64,000 nt of DNA, taken from NCBI GenBank assembly GCA_012730045.1, contig JAAYBR010000002.1:28911-92910 (forward strand). The letters are read 5' to 3'. Source of the stretch: Candidatus Hydrogenedentota bacterium (GTDB taxonomy: Bacteria; Hydrogenedentota; Hydrogenedentia; Hydrogenedentales; CAITNO01). The translations under genes were made by a program, and so were the position numbers. Each line of letters begins with the position of its first letter. Within the stretch, counting starts at the first letter, position 1. The notes under the pieces were generated by a model. That model was not told the origin of the DNA and ran no database searches. It was given only the letters and a program-made list of their open reading frames with translations. Shown piece by piece: positions 6,125 to 56,398 of the stretch.

Positions 6125-9100
6125 TTACCCGCGGCGGCGCCGCAGTGCGGCGGTGCCCGCCAGGGCCAGCCCCGCAGCCGCAGCCGCCAGACCGCCCAGG
6201 CCGGCGACCGGCGTGCCATACGCCACCGTCAGCTCGCACTGGGCCGTCAGGGTGTCGGTGTAGCTGTCGAAGGCGGTCAGCACGTAGGTGCCCGCGTCTT
6301 CAAACGCCACGTTGGTGAGCTGCAGGTCCGAGCCGTTCGGCAGGGTCGCCGTCGGCGCGACGGGCACCCCGTTGAACTGCCATTCGAAGAACACCGGGTC
6401 ATGCCCGCCCGTGGTGCGGACGCGCAGCAGGTAGTCCTTGCCGAAGATCGCCGTGTCCTCCGCCGGAATCGTCTGCGTGAAGGCCAGACGCGCGGCCAAG
6501 GTGAGCGTGGCCTCGTTGGACGGATAGGCGCCGCGGTCGTCCGTCACAACGCACCAGTAGGTGCCCGCGTTGTTCACCGACAGGTTGTTCAGCGTGAGCA
6601 CGGGCGAATTCACGCCCACGTTGGTGACGACGCCCGCCCGCTGGCGCTTCCACTGGAAGGACCGCGTGCCCTTGCCACCGCCCACGACCACCTGGAAGAA
6701 CACGCTGTCATCGTAGTAGGCGCGGCGCGCCTGCGGGTGCTGGATGAACGTGATCAGCTGACCCGCGTAGAGGTTGCGTTCGGCGTAGTCCGAACCGGCC
6801 GTGTTTGTCACCGTGCAGCGGTACAGGCCCTCGTTTGCGGCCTGCACGTTGGTGAAAGAGAGCACCGGTTCCGTGATGCCCGTCACGTTGCCCTCCGCGA
6901 TGGGAGCGCCATCCTTCGTCCACAGGTAGGTGAACGGCGGGGTGCCGCCCGACACCTGGACCGTGAGCGTGGCGGGGCTGCCGAAGGGCGCGACCCCGTC
7001 GCTCGGGTTCGGGGTGATCCCGGAGACCTCGGGCGCCAGGTTCAGGGCGAGCGTGGCGGGGTTGGACACCACGATCCCGTCTGTCCCGTCCAGCTCGCAG
7101 GTGTACACGCCCACATCGGCCTGGGCCGCCGAGGCGATGTTGTATTCAATCACCAGCGGGGCCGCCGCGAGGGTGCCCGCCGCGCCGGGACCCGTGAGCG
7201 CCACACCGTTCAGCTTCCACTGGTAGCCGATCGGCAGTGTGCTGAGATCGCCCACCGTCACGGTGAACGTGACCGGCTCGCCCGGGTCAACGATCACGCT
7301 GGCGGGGTGGCCGACAATGTAGGGGTCGCTGATCCGCAGGTTGGCCATGGCGGAGTCCACGGCACCGTCCGCGCTGGTCACGCGGCAGAAGTAATCGCCC
7401 ACCTCCGCCTCGGTCACCGGGGAGACCACCAGGGTGTCCGTCGTGCTGAGCACCGTCGCGCCGCCATCCTTGAACCACTCATAGGACAGCGCGCTGCCCA
7501 CGGCGCCCACGCTGAACGTGGCCGACCCGTTAAGCGACGCAATCTGACTCTGCGGCTGCATGGTGATGGCCGGGTCGAGCACGTTCAGATCGGCCCGGTT
7601 GCTGAACACGGCGTTCGCGCCGGACTGGTAATCGTTGCTGATGCGGCAGCGGTACCCGCCCGCCGGCCAAGTAGGCGGCTCATCGGCGTTTTCCGCGGCC
7701 GTGATGGTCAGGGTGGACAGGGTGCCCTGGGTGTCCACCGACGCGCGCGGGTTCACTCCGGTCACCTCCTGGTCTTCCTCGTCCAGCCAGGTCATCTGCA
7801 GGCCCGGAAGGCTGCCCACAACGGAGCAGATCAGCGTGGCCGTGTCCCCGTACCTGACGGCGGAACTCACCGGATGCGCAACGACCAGAATCGGCTCGTA
7901 AACGGTGATCTGCGCCCAGTCGGAGTTGACCCAGTCGTTGTCGGGGTCGCCGGTGGTGTTAATGGCGCGGCTCGCCGAGTTGCGGATCTTCACGCGGTAC
8001 CTGCCCGCGTCGGACAGGAGCGCGCCGGTGCCCGAAAGGGGCAGCAGGATCGAGTTCGAGACCGCGGCCCCCGTTGTCAGGCGAAGCAGGATTTCCTCGC
8101 CGGGCTGGCCCTCCTTGACCCACATGTAGTCGAACACCGGCGTGCCGCCGGACAGGCCCACTTCGAGCGTGAAATTTCCGCCCACCGGCACGTTCTGGCT
8201 CAGGGGCATGGTGGCGATCACCGGCACGTTGTTGACCGTGAGCGTGGCCGGGTTGGAGCTCAGGTCGCCGTCGGGCCCCGTGAGCGTGCACACATAGACG
8301 CCCTCGTCCGCGTCACGAACGCCGGTGAGGACCAGCGTCTCCGCAGTGGATCCGGTGATCACCGTGCCCTCGGGCGTGGTGCCGTCCGCGAGGGGCGCGC
8401 CGTCCTTGAACCACTGGATGGCGTTGACGGTGCCCGCCGTGGTCACGGCGAATTCCACCACGGCCAGCGGATCCACGACCTGCGACACAGGCTGCGTCAG
8501 CAGCGCCGGGTCGGAGACGGTCAGCACGCCGCCGGAGAGAAGGAACGAGGCGCCGCCCGCGGAGGGATCGGTCACAAGGCACTCATAGAGGCCCTCGTCC
8601 GCGTTCACGCAGTCGGAGATGGTGAGGATGGCCGTCGCGGCGCCGGCATACTTGGCGCCGTCCGAGAGGTCAATCCCGTCGTGCCGCCACTGGTAGACCA
8701 GGCCGGGGAAGTCCCCGGCAAGCACGGAGAACTGCGCCGGGCCCTCAACGTTGGCCGTCAGGGTCTCAGGCTGCACCTGCGGGAGGCGCACCGCGAGGGC
8801 AAACACGCCCGCAGGCACCGTCGTGGTCCACACCCGGCCGGCGGGAAGCACGCCCGGCGCACCACCCGCGCCGTTGATCAGCACGGGGGGATTCGACCCG
8901 ACCACCACGGCCACATTGTCCATGGGCTGGAGGGAGGTGTTCTTCACCACGAGCTGGTCGTGGCCCTCGTACACGGAGTAGTTCGCCGCCGGGGGCTGTC
9001 GCAGCACGCAGGCGCGCATTTGGCCGTTGTCCGGAAGCAGCGCGTCCACCTGCACCTTGTTCCAGAAGGCGGCCTTGAGCCAGCCGGCCGCCGCGGGGCC

Positions 9101-10948
9101 GCCGTCCAGTTCGGGAATCTTCGGCGTGTCGGTCCCCGTGTAGGAGTTGGCGGCCGTGAGCAGCGCCGGATTCGCCGTGGTGCCCTGCACCACCGACGCG
9201 CCGCCCGTCGTGTCAAAGAGCGGCTTGTTGGCGCTGTGCGCCGTCACGTTCATGTTGGAAATCCAGGTGAACCGGCCATTGTGCTCCGGCGCGTTGTCGG
9301 CGACATTGAGCGCCTTCACCAGCCGGCCGCCCGCGAGCACCACCGACCCCATCACTTTGGCCATGCCGGGCGTGCCGTAGCCCGCCGCGCCGCCGTTGCC
9401 GCCGTTGCCGCCCTTGCCGCCCGCGCCGCCCAGGCCGCCCGCGCCGCCGGAACCGCCGTCACCGCCCCGGGTGCCGCCATTGGTCGCACCCGTGCCACCC
9501 GCACCACCGGCGTAGCCTGAACCGCCCGCACCGCCGGATTGTCCCGTGGCACCCGGGCCACCGTTCGTCTGTCGCGTCGCGGCGCTCACGTCAAACGTGC
9601 TGCCGCTGATGTTCAGCAGGCCCTGAGCGGCCAGCACAAACGCACCGCCGCCGCTGGCACCTGTTGCACCACCTGCGCCGGAGCCGCCGGTACCGCCGGA
9701 GCCGCCCGCGCCGCCCGGCCCGCCGGTACCGAAGGTGCCGCCATTGATGCCGGACCCGTTCGCGCCCCTTCGGGTGTCAGGACTTGGAATGACCGCATTG
9801 GCTCCGGCGAGGGCCGTGTTGCCGCCCATGGCAGGAGCACCCGAACCCTGGACCGCGCCGGAGGAACCCCCGCCGCCGCCCGCGCCGCCGCCGCCGCCCG
9901 CACCGCCGCCGGACGCGCCGCCTGCACCGCCACCACCACCACCGCCACCGCGCACAACAATAGCTGTTGAACCACCGCTTCCACCGCCGCCGCCACCGCC
10001 CGCGCCGCTGCCGCCGGATGCTCCGCCGCCGCCCGCGCCACCCGCACCACCACCACCACCGCCGCCGCCATGCCCGGCCGCCAATGTCAGATCATCTGCA
10101 GGCGCGGTGAATGCGGGCGTCCCGCCCCCACCGCCGACACCCCCGTCTCCACCCGGATTGCCAATGTTGCCTGTATACCCGGCGGCACCCGTACCGCCCG
10201 CCGACCCGTTGCCGCCAATAATCCCGCCACTGCTCCCGCCGCCACCGCCATTACCGCCCGCAACCGCGCCGCCACCGGTCCCCACGGAACCAACAACCCC
10301 ACTTCCACCGCCACTCCCGGCGGTTCCACGGGATGCATATCCCAACGAACCGCTATTGCCATTCAGTCCGGGCTGGCCAGCAAGTCCGCCCGCTCCGGCA
10401 GTGCCGTCAGCACCCTGCAAACCCGCCGACCCATCCGTTCCGCCAGCGTAGACCCCGCTGCCGCCCGCGCCGCCCGCACCGCCCGCGCCGCCCGCACCAC
10501 CCGAGCCGCCAACACCGCCGGCGCCGCCCGCGCCGCCCGTGCCGCCCGTGCCGCCGCCCAGCGTGCCTGCGGGAACAAACAGGTGGGGGCCCCACAAGAT
10601 GTCGCCGGTGGCGGTGATGGACAGAGGTCTCGACCCCGTCACGTTCACGGAAACGCTGGCGCCCACCGTCAAATTGGCGAAGGGAAAGACGGCGACGCCG
10701 TCAATCTCCACGCCGGTCTTGGACTGCGCGCCCCATTGCATGATGAGCGTGTCGGTGTTGATGTTGAGCGCGCCCGCAGTGACCGTCCAGTCGCCCAGCG
10801 ACCCGTCGCTGCCGTAGATGGCCTGGGCCTGCGCGGTGCCCGCCAGGACACACGCGGCGGCCACGAGGAGGACCGCCAGAGGCGCCAGTGAGGTCCGGGG
10901 CACACCCCTGACCTGTGAACGGAAGAAAGATACGATTACGCCTGACAT
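6125..10948 (-). CDS. large secreted surface protein (1607 aa): signal peptide, roughly 400-aa Gly-rich low-complexity region, at least 8 Ig-like (I-set-type) domains, C-terminal hydrophobic helix plus RRRRG anchor
   Basis: N-terminal signal (…LAVLLVAAACVLAGTAQA). Long (GGxGGxGGA)n tracts. Recurrent Ig-like motifs (…ADEGLYECLVTD…, …VGDYFCRVTSADG…, …AGTYWCVVTDDRG…). C-terminus …GLGGLAAAAAGLALAGTAALRRRRG. Confidence 0.8.
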   Translation of the reverse strand: MSGVIVSFFRSQVRGVPRTSLAPLAVLLVAAACVLAGTAQAQAIYGSDGSLGDWTVTAGALNINTDTLIMQWGAQSKTGVEIDGVAVFPFANLTVGASVSVNVTGSRPLSITATGDILWGPHLFVPAGTLGGGTGGTGGAGGAGGVGGSGGAGGAGGAGGAGGSGVYAGGTDGSAGLQGADGTAGAGGLAGQPGLNGNSGSLGYASRGTAGSGGGSGVVGSVGTGGGAVAGGNGGGGGSSGGIIGGNGSAGGTGAAGYTGNIGNPGGDGGVGGGGGTPAFTAPADDLTLAAGHGGGGGGGGAGGAGGGGASGGSGAGGGGGGGSGGSTAIVVRGGGGGGGGAGGASGGGAGGGGGAGGGGGSSGAVQGSGAPAMGGNTALAGANAVIPSPDTRRGANGSGINGGTFGTGGPGGAGGSGGTGGSGAGGATGASGGGAFVLAAQGLLNISGSTFDVSAATRQTNGGPGATGQSGGAGGSGYAGGAGGTGATNGGTRGGDGGSGGAGGLGGAGGKGGNGGNGGAAGYGTPGMAKVMGSVVLAGGRLVKALNVADNAPEHNGRFTWISNMNVTAHSANKPLFDTTGGASVVQGTTANPALLTAANSYTGTDTPKIPELDGGPAAAGWLKAAFWNKVQVDALLPDNGQMRACVLRQPPAANYSVYEGHDQLVVKNTSLQPMDNVAVVVGSNPPVLINGAGGAPGVLPAGRVWTTTVPAGVFALAVRLPQVQPETLTANVEGPAQFSVLAGDFPGLVYQWRHDGIDLSDGAKYAGAATAILTISDCVNADEGLYECLVTDPSAGGASFLLSGGVLTVSDPALLTQPVSQVVDPLAVVEFAVTTAGTVNAIQWFKDGAPLADGTTPEGTVITGSTAETLVLTGVRDADEGVYVCTLTGPDGDLSSNPATLTVNNVPVIATMPLSQNVPVGGNFTLEVGLSGGTPVFDYMWVKEGQPGEEILLRLTTGAAVSNSILLPLSGTGALLSDAGRYRVKIRNSASRAINTTGDPDNDWVNSDWAQITVYEPILVVAHPVSSAVRYGDTATLICSVVGSLPGLQMTWLDEEDQEVTGVNPRASVDTQGTLSTLTITAAENADEPPTWPAGGYRCRISNDYQSGANAVFSNRADLNVLDPAITMQPQSQIASLNGSATFSVGAVGSALSYEWFKDGGATVLSTTDTLVVSPVTEAEVGDYFCRVTSADGAVDSAMANLRISDPYIVGHPASVIVDPGEPVTFTVTVGDLSTLPIGYQWKLNGVALTGPGAAGTLAAAPLVIEYNIASAAQADVGVYTCELDGTDGIVVSNPATLALNLAPEVSGITPNPSDGVAPFGSPATLTVQVSGGTPPFTYLWTKDGAPIAEGNVTGITEPVLSFTNVQAANEGLYRCTVTNTAGSDYAERNLYAGQLITFIQHPQARRAYYDDSVFFQVVVGGGKGTRSFQWKRQRAGVVTNVGVNSPVLTLNNLSVNNAGTYWCVVTDDRGAYPSNEATLTLAARLAFTQTIPAEDTAIFGKDYLLRVRTTGGHDPVFFEWQFNGVPVAPTATLPNGSDLQLTNVAFEDAGTYVLTAFDSYTDTLTAQCELTVAYGTPVAGLGGLAAAAAGLALAGTAALRRRRG

Positions 10949-11146
10949 TGTTCACTCTCCCAAGAGTTGGTTAACCGTACTCCAAGTCTCGAACGCGCCA
11001 CCTCAGATTGCCCTCAAGAAGCCCGCGTCCTAGGGATACCTGTTAAATTGTAGATACAATCGTTTCCAAAGTCAAGGAAAATGCGGAATCTTTTATTTTC
11101 TCCTGTTGCATGGGAGAACAGGCGGAAGGCAGGATGGGGGCGTTTT

Positions 11147-13263
11147 CTACGGCCGGACGGCCTCAAGTTTTTCAGCCAGACGGGGAAAATCCGGGTTCAG
11201 AAGGCGCACCTTCTCAAAGTACTCGCGCGCGCGATCCCTCTGTCCCAGGGCCAGAAGCACCGTGCCCAGGTTGAAATTGGCCCCGAGATGGTCCGGATTC
11301 GCCGCCAGCGGGCGCTCGTAGTGGGCGAAGGCGTCATCCACACGGCCTGCGGCCACCAGTGCGTTCGCCGCCTCCACGCAGAGTTCCGGGTCGCCGGGCC
11401 GCTTTTCCAGCGCGCTGGCGAAGGCGGCCAGCGCGTCCTCCGGCCGGTTCAGGCGCAGCAGGGCGCGCCCCCGGTTCAGGTCGGCGGCAGGGTCGGTGGC
11501 ATGGATGGTGAGTGCCTTGTCAAAGCAGGCCAAGGCCTCGTCCGGTTTTCCCTCGTCCAGGGCAAGGGTGCCGAGGTTGTTGAGGGCGATGGGGAACTCG
11601 GGGATCAGGCGGAGGGCCTCCTGGAAACGCTTTTCCACCTCCTCCTGGCGGCCCTGCTCGGCGAGGAGCTTGCCGATCTTGTGGAGGACGTAGCCAAACT
11701 GCGGCGCGATGCGGAGGGCGGCCTCGTAGTGGCGCATGACCCCCTCCGACTCGCCGCGCCGGGCAAGGTCCGGCTGGTAGGGCACCCACTGCACGGAGAA
11801 GAACACCGCCAGCAGCGCGGGCAACGCGGTGGCCCGCAGGACGCGCCCGGTCTCGCGGGACCGCACGGCGTCCAGAATGCGCGCAAGAACCGGGCCGGCC
11901 ACCACCAGCATCAGGGGAATCGCGGGCACCCGCGCACGTCCGTTCACGAAGAAGGGGATGAAGGAGGCGAGGTACAGCCCGGTGAAAACCAGCAGGAGCA
12001 GGAGCACCTGCCCCGCCGTGGCGCCGCCGGTGTCGCGCCGGAGCCGCCCGCTCAGGGCGTCCGACAGCACGAGCGCCAGCCCGGCCCAGAAAAGCGCCGC
12101 CACCAGCGGGAAACGGGGGAGGAGGTTCAGGGGCGGATAGAAGGCCATCTCGCGCTGCACCACCTTGTTGCAGGTGATCTCCACGGGGCTCCAGATCAGC
12201 ACGGCCTTTTTCAGCATGCGCCGGAGGGTCAGGCCGGGGTTGGCCTTCATGAAGGCCTTCGCGCGGCCGGCGAAATACGATGACACCTCGGTGTGCGTCA
12301 TCTCCGGACGGCCCAATTCCTTCCGCACGCCCTTGACCACGTTGATGTAGTCCTGCGCCGTCCAGTTGCCCGTGCCCTCCAGTTCCTGGAGATAGGGCAG
12401 CCACGGCGTCACGCCGTCGGCGTCCGGGTCGTTGCCGATGAGCAGGTTCTCGCCGAAATAGGTGGCGATGGGCACGAACTCGCCGGAGGCGACGTAGTTG
12501 CGCACCGTCACGGGAATCACCACCAGCACGGTCGTCACGAGCAGAAGCAGCCACGACGCGGGGATCCGCGCCAGCCGGCCCCGCCGCCACGCCACCCAAA
12601 CCATCCAGCGGCGGCCAGCGGCCCCAGCCCGAGGATGTTCGGGCGCATCAGGGCGTAGGAGCCGAAGATCAGCCCCGCCAGAACTGCCCAGCCGGGGGAG
12701 CAGTTGCGCGACCACAGAAACAGCACGTAGACCAGCAGGGGAAACAGGAACACAAAGAGCGCGGGGTCGTTGACCTCGCCCTCCCAGTAGACGAAGATGC
12801 CGAGCACGGCGGCGCAGAACGCGCTGAAGAGCCCCGCCGCCGGGGAGAAGAGCGCGCGCCCCAGCAGAAACAGCACCACGATGGTGCCGAGCCCCAGGAA
12901 CAGGTTCATCAGGCGCGGCGCGAGATAGCTCCCGTCCGTCAGCCCGTAGACCGCCGTCAGCAGGTAGCCGTAGCCCGGCGGACGGAAGAACGGCGTGGTG
13001 CGCATCTCCGGGTCCGTCGTGCCGTCGGGCACCGACCAGTCGCCCGACAGGATCGCGCGGGCGAAATAGTCCTGCACCTGCGGATCCTGCTGGAGGGCGG
13101 CGAAATCCGGGGCCTGGGCCACCTGCGCGAGGTAGGCCACCCGCAGGATTAGCCCCAGCAGCAGGATGAGCGCCAGACGCCGCCATTCCCACGGCGCGAC
13201 GCGCCGTGGAACGCCGGAATCCGTGTCAGCGGGGACGGGGGACGCTGTTGACGGTGTGGTCAC
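11147..13263 (-). pseudogene. GT39/ArnT-like (PMT family) membrane glycosyltransferase with C-terminal TPR repeats; reading frame is disrupted near 12600-12640
   Basis: The N-terminal 242 aa (13263..12535) lie in one frame and have hydrophobic helices typical of GT-C enzymes. The remainder (about 12607..11147) is in a neighbouring frame and includes at least 4 TPR repeats at the C-terminus. The first roughly 195 aa of the 681-aa ORF are frame artefact. Confidence 0.5.
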
Positions 13264-13361
13264 GTAGGCTCCTCAGCAAGACAGGTGGGCGCGCGCCCGG
13301 ACAGCCGGCAGGCCAGGACCGAAGGCCGCGGGGGGTGCAGAAAAAGGGGGCCACGCACGCC

Positions 13362-13511: not shown

Positions 13512-13654
13512 GGACACATCCTGTTTTTGGACAACGACTTCACGCAGGAATGGTACCGTCCCCCGCCCGGCAAGTCAACCTTTCGGCGACGCTGGGATTC
13601 CCGCAGGGGGAAGAACGCGCGGCGAGGGCGGCCTGCATCGGCGGCACAGCTCCG

Positions 13655-15817: not shown

Positions 15818-15826
15818 CCCGGCGGC

Positions 15827-19121: not shown

Positions 19122-19130
19122 CCCGGCGGA

Positions 19131-23689: not shown

Positions 23690-24523
23690 CTAGTTAATCC
23701 GGCTCATCAGCAGCAAAGCCACACGGGTGGCAACCTCAGTTGCTGAACCAAGCTTAACCTCCTCGGTGGTCGCCGAAGCCATGACCCGCCCATCGGAAAG
23801 GGAAATGGCCTTGGCAATGATCACGGGCACTTCAACCGCATAGTCTCCGGAGACTTTCCGCACCATGCTTTGGCCCTTCTTCACCCGGGCACTAACCACA
23901 ATGTCCGCATGTTCTTTTACAGACGCCACCTGCGCCTGTTGCGCCTGTGGCAGCTCCGGATTAGCGAAAACAGCGTCCACATCGATACCTGACAGGCCGA
24001 TCGCCACGCTCCGGTCAACCAGCACCGCGCCGCCATCCATGAAGGGGCGCTCCAGACTGTGCTGAATAGATTCAAGCTCGTCTTCCGTGAAGTCGTTTGC
24101 GCCGGGTCCCTTGGGAACATAGACTTCCTCCACCGACTCGCCACGGGCCTTAAAGGTTCCTTCTTGGCTTGACTCCGCAGTGACCGATGCCGCTCCCGTC
24201 ACCTTCAGCACCTTCTGCATCGTCCGATCATCGTTATCCTGCATGTCACGGTTCACCAAGACTATGACTCGTGGGGCTTTTTTCCCTGAAAATGCCGTCC
24301 TGAATGCCTCTATTCCGTCCCTCGCCTCTTCCGACATGGTCGGGGTTCGCCTGTCAATTTGCTGCGCAAGTGGGGGGCGGTCAGGTGAAGGCACCACATG
24401 CGGCCTCTGGGGTAGTTCTGCTGAAGGAGCAACCACCGTGTTGGAAGACTGCGTCATGGCCACGCCCTGGAAGGCGCAAACCGACACGACCATGAAAGCC
24501 AGCATCCTTATATGTACCACCAT
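23690..24523 (-). CDS. hypothetical secreted/lipoprotein (277 aa), last gene of the low-GC lipoprotein operon
   Basis: Signal peptide, AGGAGG SD, about 52-55% GC. No family is confidently recognised. Confidence 0.55.
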   Translation of the reverse strand: MVVHIRMLAFMVVSVCAFQGVAMTQSSNTVVAPSAELPQRPHVVPSPDRPPLAQQIDRRTPTMSEEARDGIEAFRTAFSGKKAPRVIVLVNRDMQDNDDRTMQKVLKVTGAASVTAESSQEGTFKARGESVEEVYVPKGPGANDFTEDELESIQHSLERPFMDGGAVLVDRSVAIGLSGIDVDAVFANPELPQAQQAQVASVKEHADIVVSARVKKGQSMVRKVSGDYAVEVPVIIAKAISLSDGRVMASATTEEVKLGSATEVATRVALLLMSRIN

Positions 24524-24534
24524 GACCGAACCTC

Positions 24535-24957
24535 CTATCGCTCCATTCTGATGCGAATGGAGTATTGTTGTGATCTTTCGTTCAGAGCGACCGCCTTGTA
24601 AGTGGACTGGCCGTTAGGCGGGAGAATGAGTGTCACCCAGGCCGTCTCATCACCAGAAGAAAATCCAGCATCGTCCTTGAAGACTGTCTGCGCTTGGACG
24701 TTCACCGCATTGTCGGAATTGTTTCTGAGAATTGCCTCGGCGATAATCCGACCTTCAGTAGTGTAGCTGGCACGTTGGGCGTCTACGCTGATGAGTTTCT
24801 GCAGGGGCTTGTCAAGCAGAACCAGAGACTCTGTTCCTTCTAGGCTTGTCCCACGTTTAAGGGGTGCGTAGGGACCTTGCGTTTGACATCCCACTCCAAC
24901 CAGCAGGAATGCAATTAGAATGAGAGTCATCACCGCATATTGAACGTTAGTTTTCAT
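24535..24957 (-). CDS. small lipoprotein, YcfL/DUF1425-like
   Basis: Signal plus lipobox-like LLVGVGC; AAGGAG SD; size and pattern resemble E. coli YcfL. Confidence 0.55.
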   Translation of the reverse strand: MKTNVQYAVMTLILIAFLLVGVGCQTQGPYAPLKRGTSLEGTESLVLLDKPLQKLISVDAQRASYTTEGRIIAEAILRNNSDNAVNVQAQTVFKDDAGFSSGDETAWVTLILPPNGQSTYKAVALNERSQQYSIRIRMER

Positions 24958-24986
24958 AGTAATTCTCCTTGATGTGTTCACGTTGT

Positions 24987-26729: not shown

Positions 26730-26749
26730 AAATATTTATGAGGGGGCCG

Positions 26750-27361: not shown

Positions 27362-27853
27362 GACCTTATTCACTCCTCTAAAACAGTTGGGACTCCCTGC
27401 AACACATGGCGACATTCACCATGAGATTCGCTCGCTTCTGCTGTTCTGCGTCTGGAAGGGTGCTCTCCCGATTCGCCCCTTCCGCCAAGGGGGAAAGAAC
27501 GGGCATGTCTCCAGAGAGGCTCTCCCCCAAAAGCCTCGGCCTCCCAGAAGGAGCCGCCAGCGACCCGTCTGACCGCTCCCCCGCGCACCGGCAGTCCCCG
27601 GGAAAGAAATGCGAACCGATATATCCGCTGTGAGTGGCACACAGCCCCACGGGGACGGCTACTTTTTCCAAGAACCTCACCATACGCGCCAATTTAGCAG
27701 AATATATCCGCAATGTCAATAGGGAACGCCCATCCCTCCCGCCGGATACGGCGGGGAACGGAATCAGGCGCGTTGTGTTAACGCGCAGAGGAATTCATGC
27801 TGGCGAGAAAGGGATGCCCCTCACCCGCCAGGTAGGACGATCCTGCCGGGAAA

Positions 27854-36786: not shown

Positions 36787-37863
36787 TCACCTAAAGAGGC
36801 GAAAACGCAACACCAGAAGAAGCGCCGCACCCGCCACCAGCACGCCTGCTATCAGGCCGCCGCGCATCCCGCGGGAGGGTGTCCCGCGGCCCGTGGCCGG
36901 TGTCCCGGCTTCTCCGGAGAATGTATGTGTGACCGTGTCTCCGTTAGCACGTCGTTCAATTGTCAAAGAGCGCGGCGCGTCTTCCACGCGCCCCATATCC
37001 AAGTCTTCCCGCGCCGCAGTGTCTCCCGCGGCAACCGTCGGACCGGTTTCGGGAACGCCTTCGCCCGCGAGGCGGCTTTCGCCCGCCTGCTCTCTTAGAG
37101 CGGCAACGGCGTCCCGCATTTCTGCGCCTGATGTGGGAACGGGTCCGGCGTCCGGGCCGTCGGCGGCCTTCTCGGGGACCTCCCGCCCTTCTGAGGGCGC
37201 AACCGGCACTGCCGCCACGCCTTCCCCGGCCAGGGTGGTCAGCCGCCCCGGTTGGACTCCGTTGGACGGTTTGTCTTCCGGGTCGGCGGGAACGGGCGGC
37301 TCCTCGGGCGTTTCACCCTCCGGAGTGTCCTCCCCTTCTTCGGTGTCTTCCCGTTCTGGCAGGGACACTGCAACCGCCCCCCCCTCAGAGGGGAGCGCCT
37401 TGCCGTCCCACGAGGCCAGTGTGGGCTGCTGCACCGCGACCGTGGTCACCCCCCCGTCCTGTCCTCCAATTCGCCGCAACAGCACCACGGCAACCAGACC
37501 ATCTTCCAACGCTGTCTGGTTGAGGCCGAGGACCACCACAATGAACCTGCCCGGCTCTGCGGCGTTGGCGGTGACCACCTTGCCCGCCTGCAGGGCGGCC
37601 GGTCCCGGTTCTGCGGCGACCGGCTCAAACACGGCCGGATCGAAGACAAGATGGAAATCCAAGGCCGCCACCTGGTTCTCACTTCCGGAAAGAAGAAGGG
37701 GTACCTGACATTCCCACTCTTCAACTGTAACCGCACCCGGCTGGACACTGCCTGCCCACCCTCCGGATGCCACAGCGATAATCAGGACAAACCCGAAAAC
37801 CACTGACTCACCCACACCTCGGCTGCCCCGCTGTTTCGGGGCCACGTCCCTAGTGTATCGCAT
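36787..37863 (-). CDS. secreted cohesin-domain-like protein with acidic Pro/Glu-rich linker and C-terminal hydrophobic helix plus basic tail anchor
   Basis: Signal, cohesin-like beta-sandwich motifs (…ALDFHLVFDPAVFEPV…TANAAEPGRFIVVVLG…) and C-terminus …RGGLIAGVLVAGAALLLVLRFRLFR. Confidence 0.6.
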   Translation of the reverse strand: MRYTRDVAPKQRGSRGVGESVVFGFVLIIAVASGGWAGSVQPGAVTVEEWECQVPLLLSGSENQVAALDFHLVFDPAVFEPVAAEPGPAALQAGKVVTANAAEPGRFIVVVLGLNQTALEDGLVAVVLLRRIGGQDGGVTTVAVQQPTLASWDGKALPSEGGAVAVSLPEREDTEEGEDTPEGETPEEPPVPADPEDKPSNGVQPGRLTTLAGEGVAAVPVAPSEGREVPEKAADGPDAGPVPTSGAEMRDAVAALREQAGESRLAGEGVPETGPTVAAGDTAAREDLDMGRVEDAPRSLTIERRANGDTVTHTFSGEAGTPATGRGTPSRGMRGGLIAGVLVAGAALLLVLRFRLFR

Positions 37864-42617: not shown

Positions 42618-45113
42618 TCACTTGCCGGCGGAGGCGCGCTGCCCTTCCCTGACCAGCTTTCGGACAGCCGTCAGGTACTGCTCCAGGGGCACTGCGGTGG
42701 GCACCAGACCGGCGTCGGGCGCCGCGTCCGCGTCGGCGGCCTTCGCCGGGGCAGAGATGTCCAGCGCGGCTTTCAGGAACGGGTCCGTCACCTGGACAAC
42801 CTTCGCGTCCGCCGACTTCTTCTCGGATTTCTCTTCCGCCGCCTCTTCCTCTTCCTCCTCCGCCGGCGCCGGCGCGGGGGTGATCACCTGCTTTCCCCGG
42901 TCGCCGCCGTAAAGGACCAGGCCCCGGTCGCGGCGGACCATGTAGAAGACGGCCTCCTCACCGGCGGTGAACTTGGGGATCCCGCTGGCGGACATGACGA
43001 ACCCGTCCATCTGGCCGCCAATGACGGAGAAGGAGACCTGGGAACCCACATTGATGTCGCCCTTCTCCACCCGGCTCACCTCCACGACAACATCGGTGAA
43101 GATGCGCGTGCTGGGCGGGGCGCTGGTGGGGGGGTACCAGCGGGCCTGGGTGGAGAGAACCTTGCCGACGAAGATGTCCGAGACGTTCGCCGTGAAGTCG
43201 GCGGCGGAGATGGGAAGCATCTGCGCCCCCGCGCCGAAACCGAACAGGAGCACGGCACCCGCAAGCGCCAGCGCGGCCGCTTTCCGGGCCTTCAGCAGAC
43301 GGACGCGGGACCACGCAGCCCCCGCAAGAGCCAGCCCCGCCAGGAGCATCCAGTGCGCCATAACCCACTCCGTTGCCGCCGCGGTCCGGCGGAAGGCCTC
43401 CAGTGCCGACGGGTTGCGGACGAGCATCCGCGCCACGGCCGGCGCCGCCGTGTAATACAGGTCCACGAGCGCGGTGCCCGCGGCCGACTTCATCAGGAAC
43501 CCGTCGCGGAAGGCGCGCAGGCGCTTGGAGGACAGCACGGTGGTCACGTCAATGTTGCCCGTGTCAATGCCGCCGGTGCCGCCGATGCCGTCCAGAACGT
43601 TCATGGGGCAGACATCGTTCGGATCGCCGAACATGGGCCGGTTGAGCGGCAGCATGGAGGGAAGCGTCTTCCCGGATATCTGGCTCACCACCTTGTTCTT
43701 CCTGAAGTCCCACACGAGGGGCGTGCCCGCGGCGTTGTTCTCAATGCCGTAGATGTTGCCGTCCTCGTTGAAGACCTCCGAGGGGTAGTTGCTGGCGAAC
43801 TCCGTCTCAGCGCGGACGTTGGTCGTGAAACTGACGGGAAGACTTCCCTGAAGGGTGTCACAGGAGCCGGCGGTCATGCCCGCGGGGGCCTGCCGCTCGA
43901 CCCCGCCACCGGTCAGGGGATTCATGGTCATCACATAGGTCGGCTCGAACATGGCGCCGGCGCCGGAGGGGATCTCCAGCTGCTTCCACATGCCCGGCAG
44001 GTAAAACTTCCCGACGAGGTTGGTGTTGGTGTAGAGCGTGTAGAGGCCGCTCATGGTGCTGAACAGCGGAATCCGCTGCCCGTTGCCGCCGTTGCTGACA
44101 TCGGCCCAGGCCACGATGTGCGCCCCGGAAACGGGGGAGGACGGGATGCCCGTGCCCCGGCGCGTGTGGGTCCGCGCCTCCTGCGACACCAGGAAGAAGT
44201 TCTCCTGTCCATCCTCCCGCGGGTAGAGCCAGGAAACGCCGGAGATGTCGTCCGGGGCGAGGTCCTTGGATCCGAAGGTCTGCGTGCCCGACAGATCCTC
44301 GGTCAGGAAAAGCATGGAGAACATGCTGGGCGTCGCGCCGACCATGCGGGCAACGCCGTCGGGACCGGTGAACTGAAGCACGGGCGACTCAGTGGGGATT
44401 CCCAGGGCGTCCGCATCAACGGGGCCCACGTTGTTAAGGGGGGTCAGACCCAGGCCGAGCATGAGGCCGGAGGCGGTGACGATGGAGGCGGTCAGATCAA
44501 GGGCGCCAATGCTGGACAGCGCGCTCGCCGACCGGTGCACGGACGCGTTCACGATGATGTCCGAGTCCAGGATGTTCCCGGCGGGCACAGTGACAACGGA
44601 CCCGCCGCTGGTGATGGGCACGTCGGTGATGGCGTAGAGCGTGAGCACCAGTCCGGCCAGGGCCTCCACCTCCGGGAGGATAAAACCGACATCGTCCGGC
44701 TCAATGTTGCTGGACCCGTCGGGAACGCTGGTCACCTGCATGAACACCGTGGGCAGATAGTCGGGGGTGGTGTATCCGGGGACGATCGGGTCCTCAATGG
44801 GGCCGACGAAACGGAAGGAGGCATAGCTGCTGGGCACGTCGGCCCACACCTGGAACCCCGCCTTCATCCGTTCGACCTCGTCGGCGGTGAAGCCCCGGGG
44901 GCCTCCCTCGTAGCGGATCTCCAGGCCCTCGCCCGGCTCGATCACGCCGTTGTTGTTCGTGTCGAAGTCCTGGGCGGGCCACACGGCATACCGGACCTGC
45001 CCGAACTGGTTAAACCCGCCGACCGGAAAGAAGGCCGCCGCGTTTGGCGCGACCGCCAGCGCGGCCAGCGCGCAACACCCCGCCAGGAGGGCTATCTGTC
45101 TGCCTTTGCTCAC
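42618..45113 (-). CDS. hypothetical secreted protein (about 831 aa) with an internal hydrophobic helix plus basic stretch separating two extracytoplasmic-looking halves
   Basis: GTG start followed by signal …IALLAGCCALAALAVAPNAAA. Mid-protein …HWMLLAGLALAGAAWSRVRLLKARK is immediately followed by a second signal-like AAALALAGAVLLFGFGAGAQM. The C-terminal part contains an (E)6-rich linker. Confidence 0.55.
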   Translation of the reverse strand: MSKGRQIALLAGCCALAALAVAPNAAAFFPVGGFNQFGQVRYAVWPAQDFDTNNNGVIEPGEGLEIRYEGGPRGFTADEVERMKAGFQVWADVPSSYASFRFVGPIEDPIVPGYTTPDYLPTVFMQVTSVPDGSSNIEPDDVGFILPEVEALAGLVLTLYAITDVPITSGGSVVTVPAGNILDSDIIVNASVHRSASALSSIGALDLTASIVTASGLMLGLGLTPLNNVGPVDADALGIPTESPVLQFTGPDGVARMVGATPSMFSMLFLTEDLSGTQTFGSKDLAPDDISGVSWLYPREDGQENFFLVSQEARTHTRRGTGIPSSPVSGAHIVAWADVSNGGNGQRIPLFSTMSGLYTLYTNTNLVGKFYLPGMWKQLEIPSGAGAMFEPTYVMTMNPLTGGGVERQAPAGMTAGSCDTLQGSLPVSFTTNVRAETEFASNYPSEVFNEDGNIYGIENNAAGTPLVWDFRKNKVVSQISGKTLPSMLPLNRPMFGDPNDVCPMNVLDGIGGTGGIDTGNIDVTTVLSSKRLRAFRDGFLMKSAAGTALVDLYYTAAPAVARMLVRNPSALEAFRRTAAATEWVMAHWMLLAGLALAGAAWSRVRLLKARKAAALALAGAVLLFGFGAGAQMLPISAADFTANVSDIFVGKVLSTQARWYPPTSAPPSTRIFTDVVVEVSRVEKGDINVGSQVSFSVIGGQMDGFVMSASGIPKFTAGEEAVFYMVRRDRGLVLYGGDRGKQVITPAPAPAEEEEEEAAEEKSEKKSADAKVVQVTDPFLKAALDISAPAKAADADAAPDAGLVPTAVPLEQYLTAVRKLVREGQRASAGK

Positions 45114-45190: not shown

Positions 45191-48100
45191 TCACCCGCGG
45201 CCCGCGGCCCGGCGCCGCCGGCCCGCCAGTGCGAGCAGACCGGCCGCGGCCAGCATCACCGCCGCATCGGCCCAGGACGTCCCCGAAGCCGTTCCGGGGG
45301 CGCATCCGATATAGCCGAGGAACTTGTTTCTGTTGTCGTCGTTGACGTACTCAAAGCCGTCCACAAGGATGTCCTCCTTGTTCTTGGCGGCGTTGCCCAC
45401 CTTGACATCCATTTTTCCGGTCTGGGCCATGCCGCCGACGGGGAACCCGACCACGAGGCGGGTGCCGTCGGGCGATCCGCCGATGACGGGCATGAGCGTC
45501 TTCCCGAAGTAGACCTGCGCCGACTGCACATCGCCAAGGTCCTCGCCGTACAGGGTGACGGGGAACTTCTTGCGCGAGGCGCGCTTCGGGTCAACGCGCA
45601 GCACCTTCGGGCTGCGCTCGGGCGTTCCGGGCGACAGCGAGAAGAGGTCCGAACGGCTGACCTCCTGCCCAGTGGCCGTGTTCCGGACGAGGAGCACGAT
45701 GGGCTCCACGGGCGGATCGTCGGACCGCGAGCTGACGGACAGGCTGATGGTGGTGTTCGTGGCGCCGGTCACGACGACGTCGTAGCCGCTCATGACCACC
45801 ACGGGCCGCGTGCCGAAGTTCTGGCCGTAGATCACGAAGCGGAACGGCTCGCCGGGCAGCGTCTGCGAGGGCAGCTCGGCCTGCGACACCGAGTCAATGG
45901 CGATGGTGGTCGGGCCCACCACGCGCGCCCGCGCCTCGAGCACGCCGGAAAGCTGCTTCTTCATCGTGTGGGACCGGATCCAGTTGAAGCCGCTGCTGTC
46001 CGGGCGGACCCCCGCCTTGGCGCCGTCCATCCAGTAATAGGCGGGCGGCGTGCGGAAGAAGGTCACGAACCCGAGGCCGCGCTGCGCCCACTGGAACTCG
46101 CGGAACTTGCGGAAGTCGTTGCGGTCCTCGCCGGGGAGGTTGGCCCACGTGTCGGGATCGGGCTCTGTCGGGGTGTTCGGACCCCACGAGACGATGCCGG
46201 CGCGGAAGCTGTCGCCCTCCTGCATGCCCTGGGCCGCGCGGACCACGACGAAGAAATCAGGGCCGTAGTCCAGGTCGTTGATGGAGACGCCGAAGGTCGG
46301 CTGAATCCACTGGCGGTTCCGCGACTGCTGCTCGCGCGGCAGCGGCTGGTCATCCGTGCCCGGGGTCGAGAAGACGAACCGGACCTGGATGTCGTCGGCG
46401 GTCTGCCCGGTGAAACGCGGCGGCCCGTCGAGCTGGATCGGGATGTCAATGCCGGGGTCGAAGTACCCGTTGCGGTTCTCGGGATGGTTGTCGTTGTCCC
46501 GGTAGAGGGCCACGCCGCTGATCCGCTGGTCCCTGCTCAGGGGAAGCAGGTCGGTCAGCGGGTTGAAGATGGCGTTGGCGCCGTTCTGGTACAGCTCGAC
46601 GGTCAGCTCCTCGAGGAACGACGGATCGCGCACGACGCGCCAGGCGCCGTTGCGCGGCGTCCCCGCGCGCAGCGTCAGCTCGTTCGCGGAGTTTCCGAGA
46701 ATCTCGTAGGTCTCGTACCCCGAGTCCACCAGCCAGTCGCCGGCAAGGGCGCCCGGCACCCACGCCGCCGAGGGCACGCGGTACCCGGACACGAGACCGA
46801 TGCCGCCGTTGCCCGCAGCAAGGATGTCGCCAGGGCGGTTCGTGGCCAGGTCGAGCCCGAGCACGGGAACGGCCTCGCCGCCGATGTTCAGCTTGGCGTT
46901 GCGGTTGGTAAGGTCCACCATGCGGACCGGGACGTTGACTTCCAGCATGTCATGCCCGTAGAAGTCCTGGACCGGGTCCTCGTCGGGGCTCGACTTGACG
47001 AAGGCCGTGCCGCTGGTGTTGACCGAGGGGAAGAACTGGATGCCGCCGCGGCGCTGGTTGTCGGGCCGCGTGGGCAGGTTGGCGGGGATGACGGCGCGAA
47101 TCTTCGAGAAGCGCGCCACGCTGTCCGAGGTGCTGATCGAGATGAACAGGTCGTCGCCGGGCTGGAGCACCTCGGGATCGAGGGCCTTCGCGCCGGGGGC
47201 CGCCTGCTGCACCCCGTTCACCTGGAGCGCGGTGGAGACGGGGCCCGCCCCCGCCGCCTTGTTGTCGTTGGGAATCTCGAAGTCGAACTCGTACCCGTCC
47301 AGGCGCGGCACCGTCCAGTTGCTCCTGGGATACAGCGTGAGCACCCAGGCCCGGTCGGCGTCGTCCACGATGCCGTTGCCGTCCATGTCGTCCGCACGGC
47401 CGTCCCCGTCGAGGTCCACCAGTTCGGGCTGGGACGCCCACTTGACGTTGGTCACGGGGACAATCCTGTCAAGCAGGGGAAGCGCGGCGCCGCTGCCGGC
47501 GTAGTTGTTCAAGTCCTGCGTGTTGAGGAAGATGCCGTTCTGGTCGGCGTCCTCCCACAACAGCACGCCGGAATCCAAGCTCTGGTTGTCGTTGGTGTCC
47601 GGGTCAAGCGTCCGGAGCATCGCCGGGGTAAAGTCCGGTCCCCAGAAGGCAACCGTGATCTGGCTGACGGCCACCGGCTCGCCGGTCGAGGTGACAATCG
47701 GGTCGGAGGATGCGACCAGGTTCATACCCAGCATGGGCATATGCGCGCTGTTGCCGTCCACTTTCTGGGCGAGCAGACGCGCGCCCGCGTTGGCGGACCG
47801 CCACTGGCTGGCCCGCGGATACTCGCCGGGGAGCAGCTCGGCGCTCCAGGTGCTGTAGCGGGGCAGCGCGGGCTGCTGCGGCGGCACGGGGTATGCCGAG
47901 GAACGCGGCCCGACAGGCGGCGCGTCACCAAGGGTGGACAGCGGACTGAAGAACGGCACCGTCTCGTAGGCGAACTGCCCCCAGCGTCCGGTGTCATCGT
48001 AGAGGAAGTTGACCTGGAAGAGGCCGAAGTCCACCACGCGCGCGCCAAAGAGACGCCAGTCGCGCACGTCCACCGTGTGGCCGTTCTCGAACTTGATCTG

Positions 48101-51100
48101 CTCCAGACCGAAGGGGTCGAGCCACTGGTCGAAGCCGCTGAGCATGCCCACACCGATGTCCGTGTAGCCGCCCAGGGTCACGTTGTCCAGGTCCACGTTG
48201 CCCGGGTTGTACACGTCCACGCTCGGGATGTAGAAGAGGTCCGTCTGGTTGCGGTAGGGCGAGTCGGACTCGTAGGTGATGACCAGGTCATGCACGTCCA
48301 CGCCCACGCGGATAGGCTTGGCCGTTGCCTGGTTGAAGGTGCGCTGCGGCCACCAGGGCTCATATTCGCCCCAGCGCGGGTCATTCTGCCACGGGTAGAG
48401 CGCCGTCGCGCCGAGCTTGACCCCCTGCGCGGGGATCATGCTGTCCACAAACACACCGCCCTCCCAGTTGCCGGACTCGGGGTTGAAGCGCCGCGGCTCG
48501 ATGAAGGCCCGGAAATCCGCGCCGTAGGTGATGCCCTGGCCGTCCCCCGGGGCGAGGGAAATGTCGCGGAAGCCGCTGTCGGTACGCACCACCACAAAGT
48601 AGTCCGGGGACGCCTCGGCGCCGAAATTGCCCATGGGGCCTTCGGCGTAGTTGTCCGGGGTCTTCTCGAGAAATCCCTCTGTAAATCCCTTGTCATAGGC
48701 GCCGTAGTTGCCGAGCTTGCGGGTGCCGCCCCACAGGCGCAGGGAAATCTTCCACCACGGGTCTCCGCCTCCCGGCGGCAGCGGGATGTACTCCCAAGTC
48801 GGCATGAGCTCCACGCTGGAGGAGGCGTTCGCGAGCATCGGGTAATCGCCGGCGAACGTGAGCCCGCCGATGGCATTCGGCGTGGGCGCGTCAAAGACAC
48901 CGTTGTTGTTGGTGTCGTGCCACACCCAGGTGCCGTTGTAGGTCAGCTCGCGGCCGAACACCTCCTCGTTGTAGAGCGGAAGCCCCCAAAGCTGTTCGGT
49001 GATGTCCTCCAGACCCGTCCGCGGGTCGAAGCCGCCGTTGCCGGGCGCACCGTAGGGGTCGCCGCCGATGTCGGTCAGGATGACGTTGACCTCGCGGAGC
49101 TGCGCCGCGTTTTTCTCGGAAATGTCGCGTGTAATCTCCGTGTCGGCGAAATGCACCGAGTTGGTGGAGTGAGCGTTGATCCCGAGGACGGACGACCAGG
49201 AGTCCACGCCCAGGAGCTTGCGCATCTGGAGAAACTCGCCCGCCACCACGTCAAGAAGCTGGTCCGGCTTGTTCCAACGCGGACGGGAATACTCCGCCAT
49301 GGGGGTGTACAGGAAATTCGGGTGACTCCAGGCGTCATGGAAAATGGGGGCCTGCCGCCCGGAGGGGGAACCCACATAGTCGTAGACCGTGAAGGAAGAG
49401 CTGTAAAACTGCTTGTCCTCCAGAATCTCGCCATCCCAGAAGTTCGGGGAGTAACTGTCGGTGGGCAGCCCCTCCTCGTCCACCGGGTAGGTTCCCGTGC
49501 GCGGGTCAACCATCACCGCGTCCAGCACCTCGACGCCCATGGTGAGCTGGCTGCGCCAGGTGGCGGAGGAGCGCACGGCCACGATGTACGAGTTGCCGTC
49601 CGGCCGGAAGTCCTCGTTTACCTCGCCTGCAGGCACGTCAAACTGCGGACGCGCCGCCGTTCCGTTGCCGATAAAGTCGAGCTCGTAGACGATGCCGGAG
49701 TACTGCTGGAGCCCGGTGATTTCGCCCACGGGGGCGCCCAGATTGTCCCAGGTGAACATCAGCTCGTCGTATTGGGAGTCAAGGATGCCGTTGAGCGGAC
49801 CAAGCACCTCCTCGGCCTCCTCACCGGCCTTGTTCTCGATGAACAGGCCGAACTCGAGCAGGTCCGTGAAATAGGGCGCGCCCATGTTGAGGTAATTCAG
49901 GTCGTCGTTGTTCCGGCTGTCCGGGCGAACCCAGTACGTCAGGGACTTCAGCTTGCGCGGCGCGAAGTTGTCGTTCTCCTCCTCGCTTTCCCCGTAGCTC
50001 ATGGTGAACCGGAAGAGGGGCACCCAGTCGGAGAGGGGCAGCACGGACTCCCGGTCCGCGACCAGGGTGGAGAAGGAGATGTCGGCCGTCGGCTCGTCCG
50101 TCTGGCCCTCACCCTCGCCCTCGCCCTCCCCCTCGCCTTCCCCTTCACCCTCGCCCTCAGTGCCGCACCCGATGCACTCGAGCACCTCGATGTAGTTCTC
50201 CCGGGTGAACTGGCGGGTGACCAGCGCGCCGCCGTTGCAGTTGTCACGGTAAGTCACCGTCAGAACCACGTCGTAGATGCCGGGCGCGGTGTAGCGGTGC
50301 ACGGGGTTGCGCTCGGTGGACGACTGGCCGTCGCCGAAGTTCCAGTACCAGCCCACGGGCGCGAAACAGCTGTCGCCCACGGAGAGGTCCGTGAAGGTCA
50401 CCGCCAGGGCGGGCACGGGGTTCGCGGGCGTGATGTTGCCGCGCGTCGGCGTCGCCGAGAAGTCCACATACGGCGTGGCCAGTATCTCGATGTACTCGGT
50501 CTTGGTGACCGTGGTCGTCACGCCGTACTGGTTGGTCACCGCGACCGACACGGTGTAGAAGCCCGTCGCGGTGTAGATGTGGACGGGGTTGATCTCGTTC
50601 GAGGCCTGCCCGTCGCCGAAGCTCCACGCCACGCTGGCGGCCTGGTTTGCCCCGATCAGCGTGAAGGCCACGCTGCCGTTGACGATCTGCCGGCGCGGGG
50701 TGCCGGTGAAGTCCAGGGTTGCCGGCGTGGTCGCCGTGACCGTCTGGGTGAGGTTGGCCACCGGGGTGTTGGTGCGGATCCAGTTGCGCAGGGCGGCGAA
50801 GTCGGGGCCGTCCTGGCTGCGGTCCACATCGGTCCGCGGAATCACGCTCATCTTGTCCTTGTCGAAGCCCCAGTAGCGCACGGGCCGCGGCCGCTGGAAG
50901 AGGGTGATGTACCCGACGGCGCGGCTTCCCCAGGGGAACTCGGAGAAGAGGTCAAACTCATCGGCGTTCTGCCCGGGAAGGGGCGGCGAGGCCAGGCTGA
51001 CCGTGAAGTTGTCCGGGTCGGGCTCGGTGGGGGTGTTCGGGCCCCAGGACACGATGGCGGCCTGGAACTGGTCGCCCTGGTTCATGGCCGTGGCGGCGCG

Positions 51101-56398: not shown

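Follow-up and report, generated by a model that had tools for sequence, protein, structure and literature searches.

Whether secreted proteins that end alike share one sorting signal, or whether each simply carries a membrane anchor, is the question raised by a 64,000-nucleotide stretch of DNA from a Candidatus Hydrogenedentota bacterium (contig JAAYBR010000002.1), the whole of which is hereafter called the window. Three otherwise unrelated proteins encoded there, an Ig-domain protein, a cohesin-like protein and a giant protein with PKD and IPT-like domains, terminate in a hydrophobic helix followed by a basic cluster. A preliminary description had taken these tails, together with a helix and KARK cluster inside an 831-residue protein, for a possible undescribed sorting signal of the exosortase or rhombosortase type. 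We assign a probability of about 0.55 to a different reading, namely that the three tails are independent stop-transfer anchors, alike through membrane biophysics and a G+C-driven amino acid composition, and that the 831-residue protein contains a transmembrane hairpin. This reading is preferred because the tails share no motif, match no sorting-domain model and reflect the composition of the organism's proteins, because a GldG-like control protein ends in the same way, because the topology deduced for related proteins fits an anchor, and because no processing enzyme is encoded nearby.

Translation exactly reproduced the endings that had been quoted: ...AYGTPVAGLGGLAAAAAGLALAGTAALRRRRG for the Ig protein, ...FLGYIGCAPGTASGTSWADAAVMLAAAGLLALAGRRRRAAGRG for the giant protein and ...RGGLIAGVLVAGAALLLVLRFRLFR* for the cohesin-like protein. 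Their description as secreted was borne out as well, all three bearing signal-peptide-like N-termini by inspection of the n-, h- and c-regions; the 831-residue protein starts with such a sequence too. In the Ig protein an N-terminal signal peptide is followed by a Gly-rich region (residues ~105-548) and about nine Ig domains, the latter matching Ig_3/I-set in Pfam. The cohesin-like protein and the giant protein each start with a signal or anchor sequence; this is accompanied in the former by a tentative cohesin domain and a Pro-rich, acidic linker, and in the latter by two PKD domains (Pfam), two large internal repeats and, towards the C-terminus, two IPT-like domains. The domain content given earlier was thus recovered for the Ig and PKD domains by Pfam and for the IPT-like folds by AlphaFold2, whereas the cohesin assignment is backed by a sub-threshold Pfam match (22.1 bits against a cutoff of 24.1). 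Nor do all three tails end in poly-Arg as had been stated, since that of the cohesin-like protein ends RFRLFR.

Two of these proteins have further peculiarities of sequence. The Gly-rich region of the Ig protein (9305..10636, minus strand), which precedes the nine Ig domains, is of low complexity, with more than 40% glycine in runs of the GGAGGAGG type. The giant protein is internally duplicated: residues ~200-1890 and ~2100-3490 are 33-40% identical, the halves are separated by the two PKD domains and a (GE)8 linker (50108..50155), and the repeat unit of ~1,700 residues has no Pfam family match.

The tails were compared with the eight attributes of sorting signals listed by Haft (10.1101/2023.06.07.544157), according to which a tripartite sorting signal needs a signature motif common to otherwise unrelated proteins of one genome. 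In overall architecture (signal peptide, large ectodomain, C-terminal helix, basic cluster) the proteins do resemble bearers of tripartite signals, as the preliminary description had pointed out. The hydrophobic segments span 15-22 residues, and the basic clusters end 0-9 residues before the C-terminus in the three tails, but not in the 831-residue protein or in the giant-protein orthologue of one related locus, L006. A motif before the helix, however, is not common to the three: this region reads AYGTP or GxPVAG in the Ig protein, GC[AG]P...G[WF]xxD in the giant protein and RG[GV]L in the cohesin-like protein, without a common position, and the tails do not align with each other beyond composition. 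The proposal of one shared signal therefore finds no footing in these alignments.

What each tail conserves is confined to its own orthologues. Four orthologous Ig tails (P0005, L016, L017, L018; 69-93% identical) retain G-x-P-V-A-G-L-G-G-L...RRRR, so that GxPVAGLGGL is the kept part of this tail, and although a more distant Ig-repeat protein (L020, 27% identity) ends without it, all closer orthologues keep theirs. The cohesin-like orthologues in L003 and L019 (67% identical) preserve the distal LLLVLRFRLFR exactly, while residues before the helix vary; L019 has RGVLIA where the window has RGGLIA, with Gly-Gly changed to Gly-Val. In nine orthologous giant tails (38-90% identical to that of the window, from genomes of 50-69% G+C) a Cys is invariant, always with Gly, Ala or Ser before it and in most cases with [AG]-P after it; next come a spacer of variable length, G-[WF]-x-x-D, 14-16 hydrophobic residues and an Arg/Lys cluster. 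Like the Cys, the Asp is invariant; it lies 12-16 residues further on and opens the hydrophobic segment. A signature of the required kind, Cys plus Asp, was thus observed among the giant-protein orthologues alone. Codon changes are mostly synonymous, both in the Ig tail (17 synonymous and 2 non-synonymous changes in 33 codons, window against L016) and in the giant tail (12 and 5 in 45 codons, window against an orthologue), which argues that the tails are translated sequence under purifying selection and not read-through artefacts.

The common look of the tails, rich in Ala, Gly, Leu and Arg, can be attributed to the amino acid composition of the organism. No residues are commoner in the window's proteins than Ala, Gly and Leu, and Arg predominates over Lys, with R/(R+K) at 0.72. 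Other helices in the window are equally rich in these three residues (A+G+L fraction 0.62-0.84), among them the hairpin helices of the 831-residue protein, signal-peptide cores and the C-terminal helix of a GldG-like protein. Moreover, tails from relatives with 50-54% G+C are poorer in Ala+Gly and make use of Lys (RRKAKV; KKK on an unrelated protein of L006). When ~124 open reading frames (ORFs) of the window and related loci were scanned, endings of this kind were seen on the three proteins, the GldG-like protein, one polytopic ABC-transporter permease and one L006 protein. The GldG-like protein (58635..60680), an ABC-transporter accessory protein that ends ...AAAWVAVMCLVQAVAAAGLLARALRGRHQ, served as a control: it has the same architecture and is not expected to be sorted. 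Its gene belongs to a group that immediately precedes the giant gene in the same orientation (56794..62007, minus strand) and that encodes an ABC ATPase, an ABC-2 permease, the GldG-like protein and a DUF4340 protein. A functional link of this group to the giant protein is doubtful because the adjacency is not kept in L005 or L006.

The 831-residue protein, whose gene directly follows that of the giant protein, had been included as an internal example of the same tail. A helix with KARK is indeed present, but it is one half of a hairpin rather than a copy of the tails. Residues 587-630 read HWMLLAGLALAGAAW-SRVRLLKARK-AAALALAGAVLLFGFGAGA, that is, two helices joined by a basic loop; the second is signal-peptide-like and ends AGA|Q in the window. 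All six orthologues retain this hairpin together with a site of the AxA type (AGA|Q, SHA|M, GHA|G or ANA|G). Ahead of the hairpin, residues 531-577 resemble the CFI_box_CTERM model (NF041770, cutoff 40 bits), with scores of 39.4 bits in the window, 42.3 in L005, 40.7 in L002 and 36.7 in L006, and the alignments always cover profile positions 18 to 63-66 of 69. The KARK helix would then belong to a domain that has already been modelled and is here internal, being followed by the second helix and a domain of ~200 residues. No paper on the CFI-box domain was found in a literature search. Two other assignments of this protein were considered. That of a dedicated sorting protease was rejected, as the protein has a two-helix hairpin only and no Pfam protease domain; and the impression that its N-terminal domain (residues ~60-330, with …TASGLMLGLGLTP… and DDISG[VI]SWLYP, no HExxH) is a degenerate metzincin found no support in Pfam or PDB sequence searches.

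The partner proteins of related loci are 44-86% identical. Wherever a related locus extends upstream of the partner homologue, the giant gene lies next to it (L002, L005) or is fused with it (L006). In L006 (JAAYJV010000009.1), from a Candidatus Hydrogenedens metagenome-assembled genome (MAG) with 50% G+C, both homologues form one in-frame ORF (4229..12523), as assembled in this single MAG. At the junction, near 9980..10060 (...GLLGCGPAEESGRIGWLGDLTLLAALGAALTFSRRRFRSFTLLLVLTLLFAVTPGQAFFPKGGW...), the tail helix and an RRR cluster run into the signal-peptide core and AxA site of the partner (...GDLTLLAALGAALTFSRRRFRSFTLLLVLTLLFAVTPGQA|FFP...), and the Cys/Asp motif of the tail is kept although it is now internal, with ~830 residues after it. 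This natural fusion, together with the helix-basic-helix junction found in all orthologues of the 831-residue protein, gives support to a use of these helices as membrane-spanning segments with a cytoplasmic basic cluster, for which a position at the C-terminus would not be required. Signal peptidase may cut the 831-residue protein at an internal site, as in a small polyprotein, and helix-basic-helix junctions such as these two could mark bacterial polyproteins cut at internal signal peptides. One of the loci concerned, L005 (CAZBNU010000032.1), is labelled 'uncultured Nitrospirales' and bears a gene pair otherwise found only in Hydrogenedentota MAGs; this contig may be mis-binned or its MAG misclassified.

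Known sorting-domain models did not recognize the tails, in which the preliminary description had already seen no clear defining motif. Fifteen tail sequences (the three tails, two of them also in shortened form, tails of orthologues and that of one unrelated L006 protein) were scanned against NCBIfam at E<=10, and no sorting-domain model reached its cutoff; the best score was 13.7 bits for PVV-CTERM (cutoff 27). MYXO-CTERM scored 7-9 bits (cutoff 20), with 7.4 for the giant tail, GC_trans_RRR 7-10 (cutoff 15.85), so that the two models of the MYXO-CTERM family (TIGR03901.2 and TIGR03382) together span 7.3-10.3 bits, JDVT-CTERM 11.4 (cutoff 27), PGF-CTERM 12.4 (cutoff 24.5) and the LPXTG anchor 7.5 (cutoff 15.9). 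These weak alignments cover only the helix and basic cluster, the part generic to such domains, and the PEP-CTERM and GlyGly-CTERM models gave no match in the 15 tails even at E<=10. On model scores, membership was rejected for PEP-, GlyGly-, LPXTG, PGF-, IPTL-, VPLPA-, PVV-, PID-, JDVT- and MYXO-CTERM.

Processing enzymes were likewise not encoded in the window. All genes with at least four predicted transmembrane segments are transporter permeases or a PMT_2 glycosyltransferase, so that the window holds no exosortase-, rhombosortase- or CPBP-like gene, as had been noted for the first two. No intramembrane protease gene was observed in the window, and in the scanned related loci the only one was a generic rhomboid in L005. 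This rhomboid was rejected as a rhombosortase: its score of 37.3 bits falls short of the cutoff (84), five genes separate it from the giant gene, which is on the opposite strand, and the window encodes no equivalent. Myxosortase (CPBP core, NF040914) was absent from the window and from loci L002-L007. A literature search on Hydrogenedentota and sorting systems returned nothing.

In the scheme that we favor, each protein would be exported through Sec by its N-terminal signal peptide until the hydrophobic segment at its C-terminus halts translocation within the cytoplasmic membrane. The Arg cluster would be held in the cytoplasm, in keeping with the positive-inside rule, by which the basic cluster of a stop-transfer helix stays cytoplasmic, and the large Ig, PKD/IPT or cohesin-like ectodomain would be tethered outside the cytoplasmic membrane. 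Any such anchor would need a helix and a positive cluster, which at 69% G+C would be made of Ala, Gly and Leu and of Arg. In the 831-residue protein, the helix with KARK would form the first half of the hairpin, and the basic loop would also serve the internal, signal-peptide-like second helix as an n-region. The giant tail would follow the same scheme with an extra motif, a small residue-Cys and an Asp at the start of the helix, which may add a function at the membrane surface; this could be processing and lipidation, or docking to the 831-residue partner.

Several observations weigh against this scheme. The organism is presumably diderm, in which case an inner-membrane anchor would leave adhesin-like proteins of 1,600-3,700 residues inside the periplasm, and in such situations cleavable sorting tags are usually the answer. 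The giant tail has just 14-16 hydrophobic residues from its Asp to its Arg cluster, few for a stable anchor, and the segment of the Ig tail, at 68% Ala+Gly, is weakly hydrophobic. A plain anchor does not account for the invariant Cys in the predicted disordered linker of the giant tail, nor would it call for the exact sequence, rather than hydrophobicity as such, that is conserved in the Ig tail. Finally, a family with a looser motif could be encoded elsewhere in the genome.

It is possible, though on balance unlikely, that the giant tail alone is a new, lineage-specific Cys-containing tripartite signal of the MYXO-, JDVT- or CGP-CTERM kind, the Ig and cohesin-like tails being plain anchors. 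After Sec export such a tail would hold the protein in the inner membrane, the Cys would be modified, the helix and Arg cluster would be removed by an intramembrane protease encoded elsewhere, probably of the CPBP family, and the protein would be delivered to the surface. This would explain why the Cys is invariant in tails of 38-90% identity although Cys makes up just 0.9% of the residues in the window's proteins. In an AlphaFold2 model of the last 278 residues (mean pLDDT, the predicted local distance difference test, 58.9; 70-83 in most domain-core parts), two IPT-like beta-sandwiches precede the tail and a helix spans residues 253-272, while the Cys (residue 242) falls between the last IPT strand and this helix in a stretch with pLDDT <50, outside any fold. 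Maintenance of a fold is therefore probably not what keeps the Cys invariant. A short, Gly/Ala-rich hydrophobic segment bounded by the invariant Asp and an Arg/Lys cluster, and a length of 37 residues from Cys to end, close to the ~34 residues of MYXO-CTERM and JDVT-CTERM (10.1101/2023.06.07.544157), point in the same direction. A second, unrelated secreted protein of 332 residues in L006 (13404..14402), with acidic GEPVEPVE and GEGGD repeats, ends CGCKGCCGCKGCSG...GLADWLLLSLSVLALVSFSHSKKK, a Cys-rich motif followed by a helix and a Lys cluster (KKK); it matched no NCBIfam or Pfam model and was the only further unrelated protein of this kind seen, which limits its weight. Against a Cys tag, the giant tail stays below the cutoff of every Cys-type model, no CPBP gene adjoins it as one does in the one-client JDVT-CTERM system, and in L006 it is internal. 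A search of 1.84 billion representative proteins with the giant-tail profile retrieved one further orthologue fragment (P0006), and among the ORFs of the window and related loci this profile found no other bearer, at a low sensitivity that gave the L006 orthologue tail 10.6 bits and did not list that of L005. The absence of a wider family is thus weak evidence, because the profile misses true distant orthologous tails. A word-index search of 5.8 billion proteins with a 47-column profile (E<=10), which returned no match, is uninformative, since it missed P0001-P0004, which score 69-80 bits with the same profile run locally; negatives obtained there with short low-complexity profiles are not trustworthy. 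Put more specifically, the proposal would be a Hydrogenedentota tag in which small residue-Cys-[AG]-P is followed, after about 10 spacer residues, by G-[WF]-x-x-D, a helix of 14-16 residues and an Arg/Lys cluster, borne by the giant protein and perhaps by the L006 protein, which a myxosortase-related protease would cleave and lipidate; we regard this specific form as doubtful.

It appears quite improbable that the giant tail and the hairpin of the 831-residue protein are instead assembly elements of one membrane complex, with Cys and Asp serving helix-helix or disulfide contacts rather than sorting. The conserved adjacency and the in-frame fusion of the two genes would fit, as gene fusion is a classical hint of interacting proteins, and in both modules an invariant Cys, that of GC[AG]P in the giant tail and that of VCPMN[VI] in the 831-residue protein, shortly precedes a helix with a basic cluster. 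The fusion, however, was seen in a single MAG assembly, contact between the two proteins would be deduced from gene order and motifs, and pairing of the two Cys, both of which would sit in the oxidizing periplasm, is conjectural. We consider highly unlikely the original idea, in which a single undescribed signal of the exosortase or rhombosortase type, served by one housekeeping enzyme encoded elsewhere, would occur in variant forms in the three tails and inside the 831-residue protein. It would account for a tripartite layout on three unrelated, signal-peptide-bearing, adhesin-like proteins within 64 kb and for the Gly-Gly directly before the helix in the Ig and cohesin-like tails, and genes for prepilin-type N_methyl proteins (PF07963) do occur just outside the window. 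But no pre-helix residue is common to the three tails, the Gly-Gly of the cohesin-like tail is lost in L019, the GlyGly-CTERM and PEP-CTERM models fail to match, the internal example appears to be part of a different domain, and the sole rhomboid near an orthologous locus scores far below the rhombosortase cutoff in a position that is not conserved. Independent anchors therefore remain our preferred reading of the three tails, and the coordinates of all features concerned are given in Table 1.

Table 1. Coordinates in the window of the genes, tails and membrane segments discussed, with their main sequence features.
Feature	Coordinates	Strand	Details
Ig-domain protein gene, 1607 aa	6125..10948	-	Translation, Pfam; same gene call in L001 and L012
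Ig tail	6128..6223	-	Linker AYGTP 6209..6223; 22-residue Ala/Gly/Leu hydrophobic segment 6143..6208; RRRRG 6128..6142
Cohesin-like protein gene, 358 aa	36787..37863	-	Translation, Pfam
Cohesin-like tail	36790..36861	-	18-residue hydrophobic segment GGLIAGVLVAGAALLLVL 36808..36861; RFRLFR 36790..36807
831-aa partner gene	42618..45113	-	Directly downstream of the giant gene, 77 bases apart
Predicted transmembrane hairpin inside the 831-aa protein	43224..43355	-	Helix 1 43311..43355; loop SRVRLLKARK 43281..43310; helix 2 43224..43280
CFI-box-CTERM-like domain, residues 531-577	43383..43523	-	NF041770; ~47 residues upstream of the helix
Invariant VCPMN[VI] motif	43596..43613	-	Stands where the CFI box would be, followed by an insertion of variable length
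Giant protein gene, 3735 aa	45191..56398	-	Stop 45191..45193; likely start 56398, ORF open up to 56716
Giant tail	45194..45325	-	KFLGYIGCAPG (Cys codon 45302..45304), variable spacer, W-A-D 45266..45274
Giant tail, distal part	45194..45265	-	15-residue hydrophobic segment 45221..45265; RRRRAAGRG 45194..45220
Control: C-terminal helix of the GldG-like protein	58638..58724	-	AAAWVAVMCLVQAVAAAGLLA + RALRGRHQ; ABC-transporter accessory protein

The genomic setting of these features is an ordinary chromosomal one, with genes for DAHP synthase, ScpB, AspRS, the ribosomal proteins L10 and L7/L12, RsgA, XseA, a polyprenyl synthase and ABC transporters. Identical copies of window proteins occur in ENA/JGI metagenome contigs and on DAITVY010000003.1 of MAG GCA_036841565.1, and orthologues of the proteins studied come from MAGs named Candidatus Hydrogenedentes or Hydrogenedentota, which makes the organism an uncultured member of this phylum. 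It occurs in samples from anaerobic digesters, such as JGI 3300026252. The G+C content of the window is 65-71% (genome ~69%) except in one island of ~53% (23690..27415, minus strand). The four minus-strand genes of this island encode proteins that begin with a lipoprotein-type or signal-peptide sequence, one of them LpoB-like (PF13036) and the others without a family match. The island was probably acquired horizontally. About 0.5 kb to the left of the window, locus L012 contains a gene (4297..5253) with a prepilin-type N-methyl domain (N_methyl, PF07963) and an SBP_bac_10 domain. At least one prepilin-type (N-methyl) protein is thus encoded by the genome, type II secretion pseudopilins and type IV pilins being members of this class.

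The finding is an ordinary one if, as is most likely, the tails are plain anchors. It carries the lesson that in G+C-rich genomes C-terminal anchors come to resemble PEP-CTERM or MYXO-CTERM tags, and that architecture alone does not make a sorting signal. The giant tail is nevertheless worth keeping in view, for its invariant Cys before a short helix recurs in Hydrogenedentota genomes of 50-69% G+C and is recognized by no current model. Should it prove to be a tag, it could bring the number of Cys-type sorting signals to five and help to track down the cognate protease in an uncultured phylum, and would extend Cys-type sorting to a candidate phylum without a cultured member. The natural fusion in L006, in turn, offers sequence-based support for the membrane topology of the giant tail.

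Among known systems, MYXO-CTERM with its CPBP-family protease MrtX (TIGR03901.2 / TIGR03382) comes close to the giant tail, which has a Gly-Cys, a short, uncharged Gly/Ala-rich helix, an Arg cluster and a similar length, on a large signal-peptide-bearing protein of surface type. In MYXO-CTERM the protease cleaves in a Cys-dependent way (PMC11980579). The giant tail differs in its longer spacer between Cys and helix (12-16 residues), which ends in the invariant Asp; the Ig and cohesin-like tails differ in having no Cys after their last folded domain; and MYXO-CTERM has been reported only from Myxococcota and Bradymonadales, whereas the tails described here are from Hydrogenedentota. With JDVT-CTERM/MrtJ (NF033191 / NF033192) the giant tail shares a single Cys, a conserved Asp associated with the helix and possibly a single client per genome. 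However, the best score was reached only by the giant-tail orthologue of L005, the DP motif of JDVT-CTERM lies nine residues after the Cys and inside the helix whereas the giant tail has a lone Asp before it, and the CPBP protease gene is adjacent in 16/17 JDVT-CTERM cases, while the giant gene adjoins those of the non-protease 831-residue protein and of the DUF4340 protein.

The likeness to other sorting systems is more limited. GlyGly-CTERM/rhombosortase (TIGR03501 / TIGR03902) has in common with the Ig and cohesin-like tails a Gly-Gly right before the helix and a basic cluster after it, but its model does not match and the Gly-Gly is not retained by the L019 cohesin-like orthologue; in a proteome with 10.5% Gly, such pairs are expected by chance. 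PEP-CTERM/exosortase (TIGR02595) shares the tripartite layout only, as no tail contains a PEP motif. To LPXTG/sortase (TIGR01167) the tails are similar in the same layout, and the [LMT]-P-V-A-G before the helix of the Ig orthologues bears a remote likeness to LPXTG or LPXAG, although its first position varies (L, M, T) among close orthologues and the model score is less than half its cutoff. Genes for a sortase or an exosortase were likewise absent from the vicinity of the tails. CFI-box-CTERM (NF041770) corresponds, at about threshold, to the segment before the KARK helix of the 831-residue protein, with the differences that the domain is internal instead of C-terminal and that the CFI box itself is replaced by VCPMN[VI] and an insertion. 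The remaining comparison is with ordinary bitopic (type I) membrane proteins. The giant tail departs from these in its short segment with an invariant Cys ahead of it, and the Ig tail in an unusually Ala/Gly-rich helix; in having a signal peptide, an ectodomain, one C-terminal helix and cytoplasmic Arg/Lys residues the three proteins resemble them, and the GldG-like protein ends in the same way.

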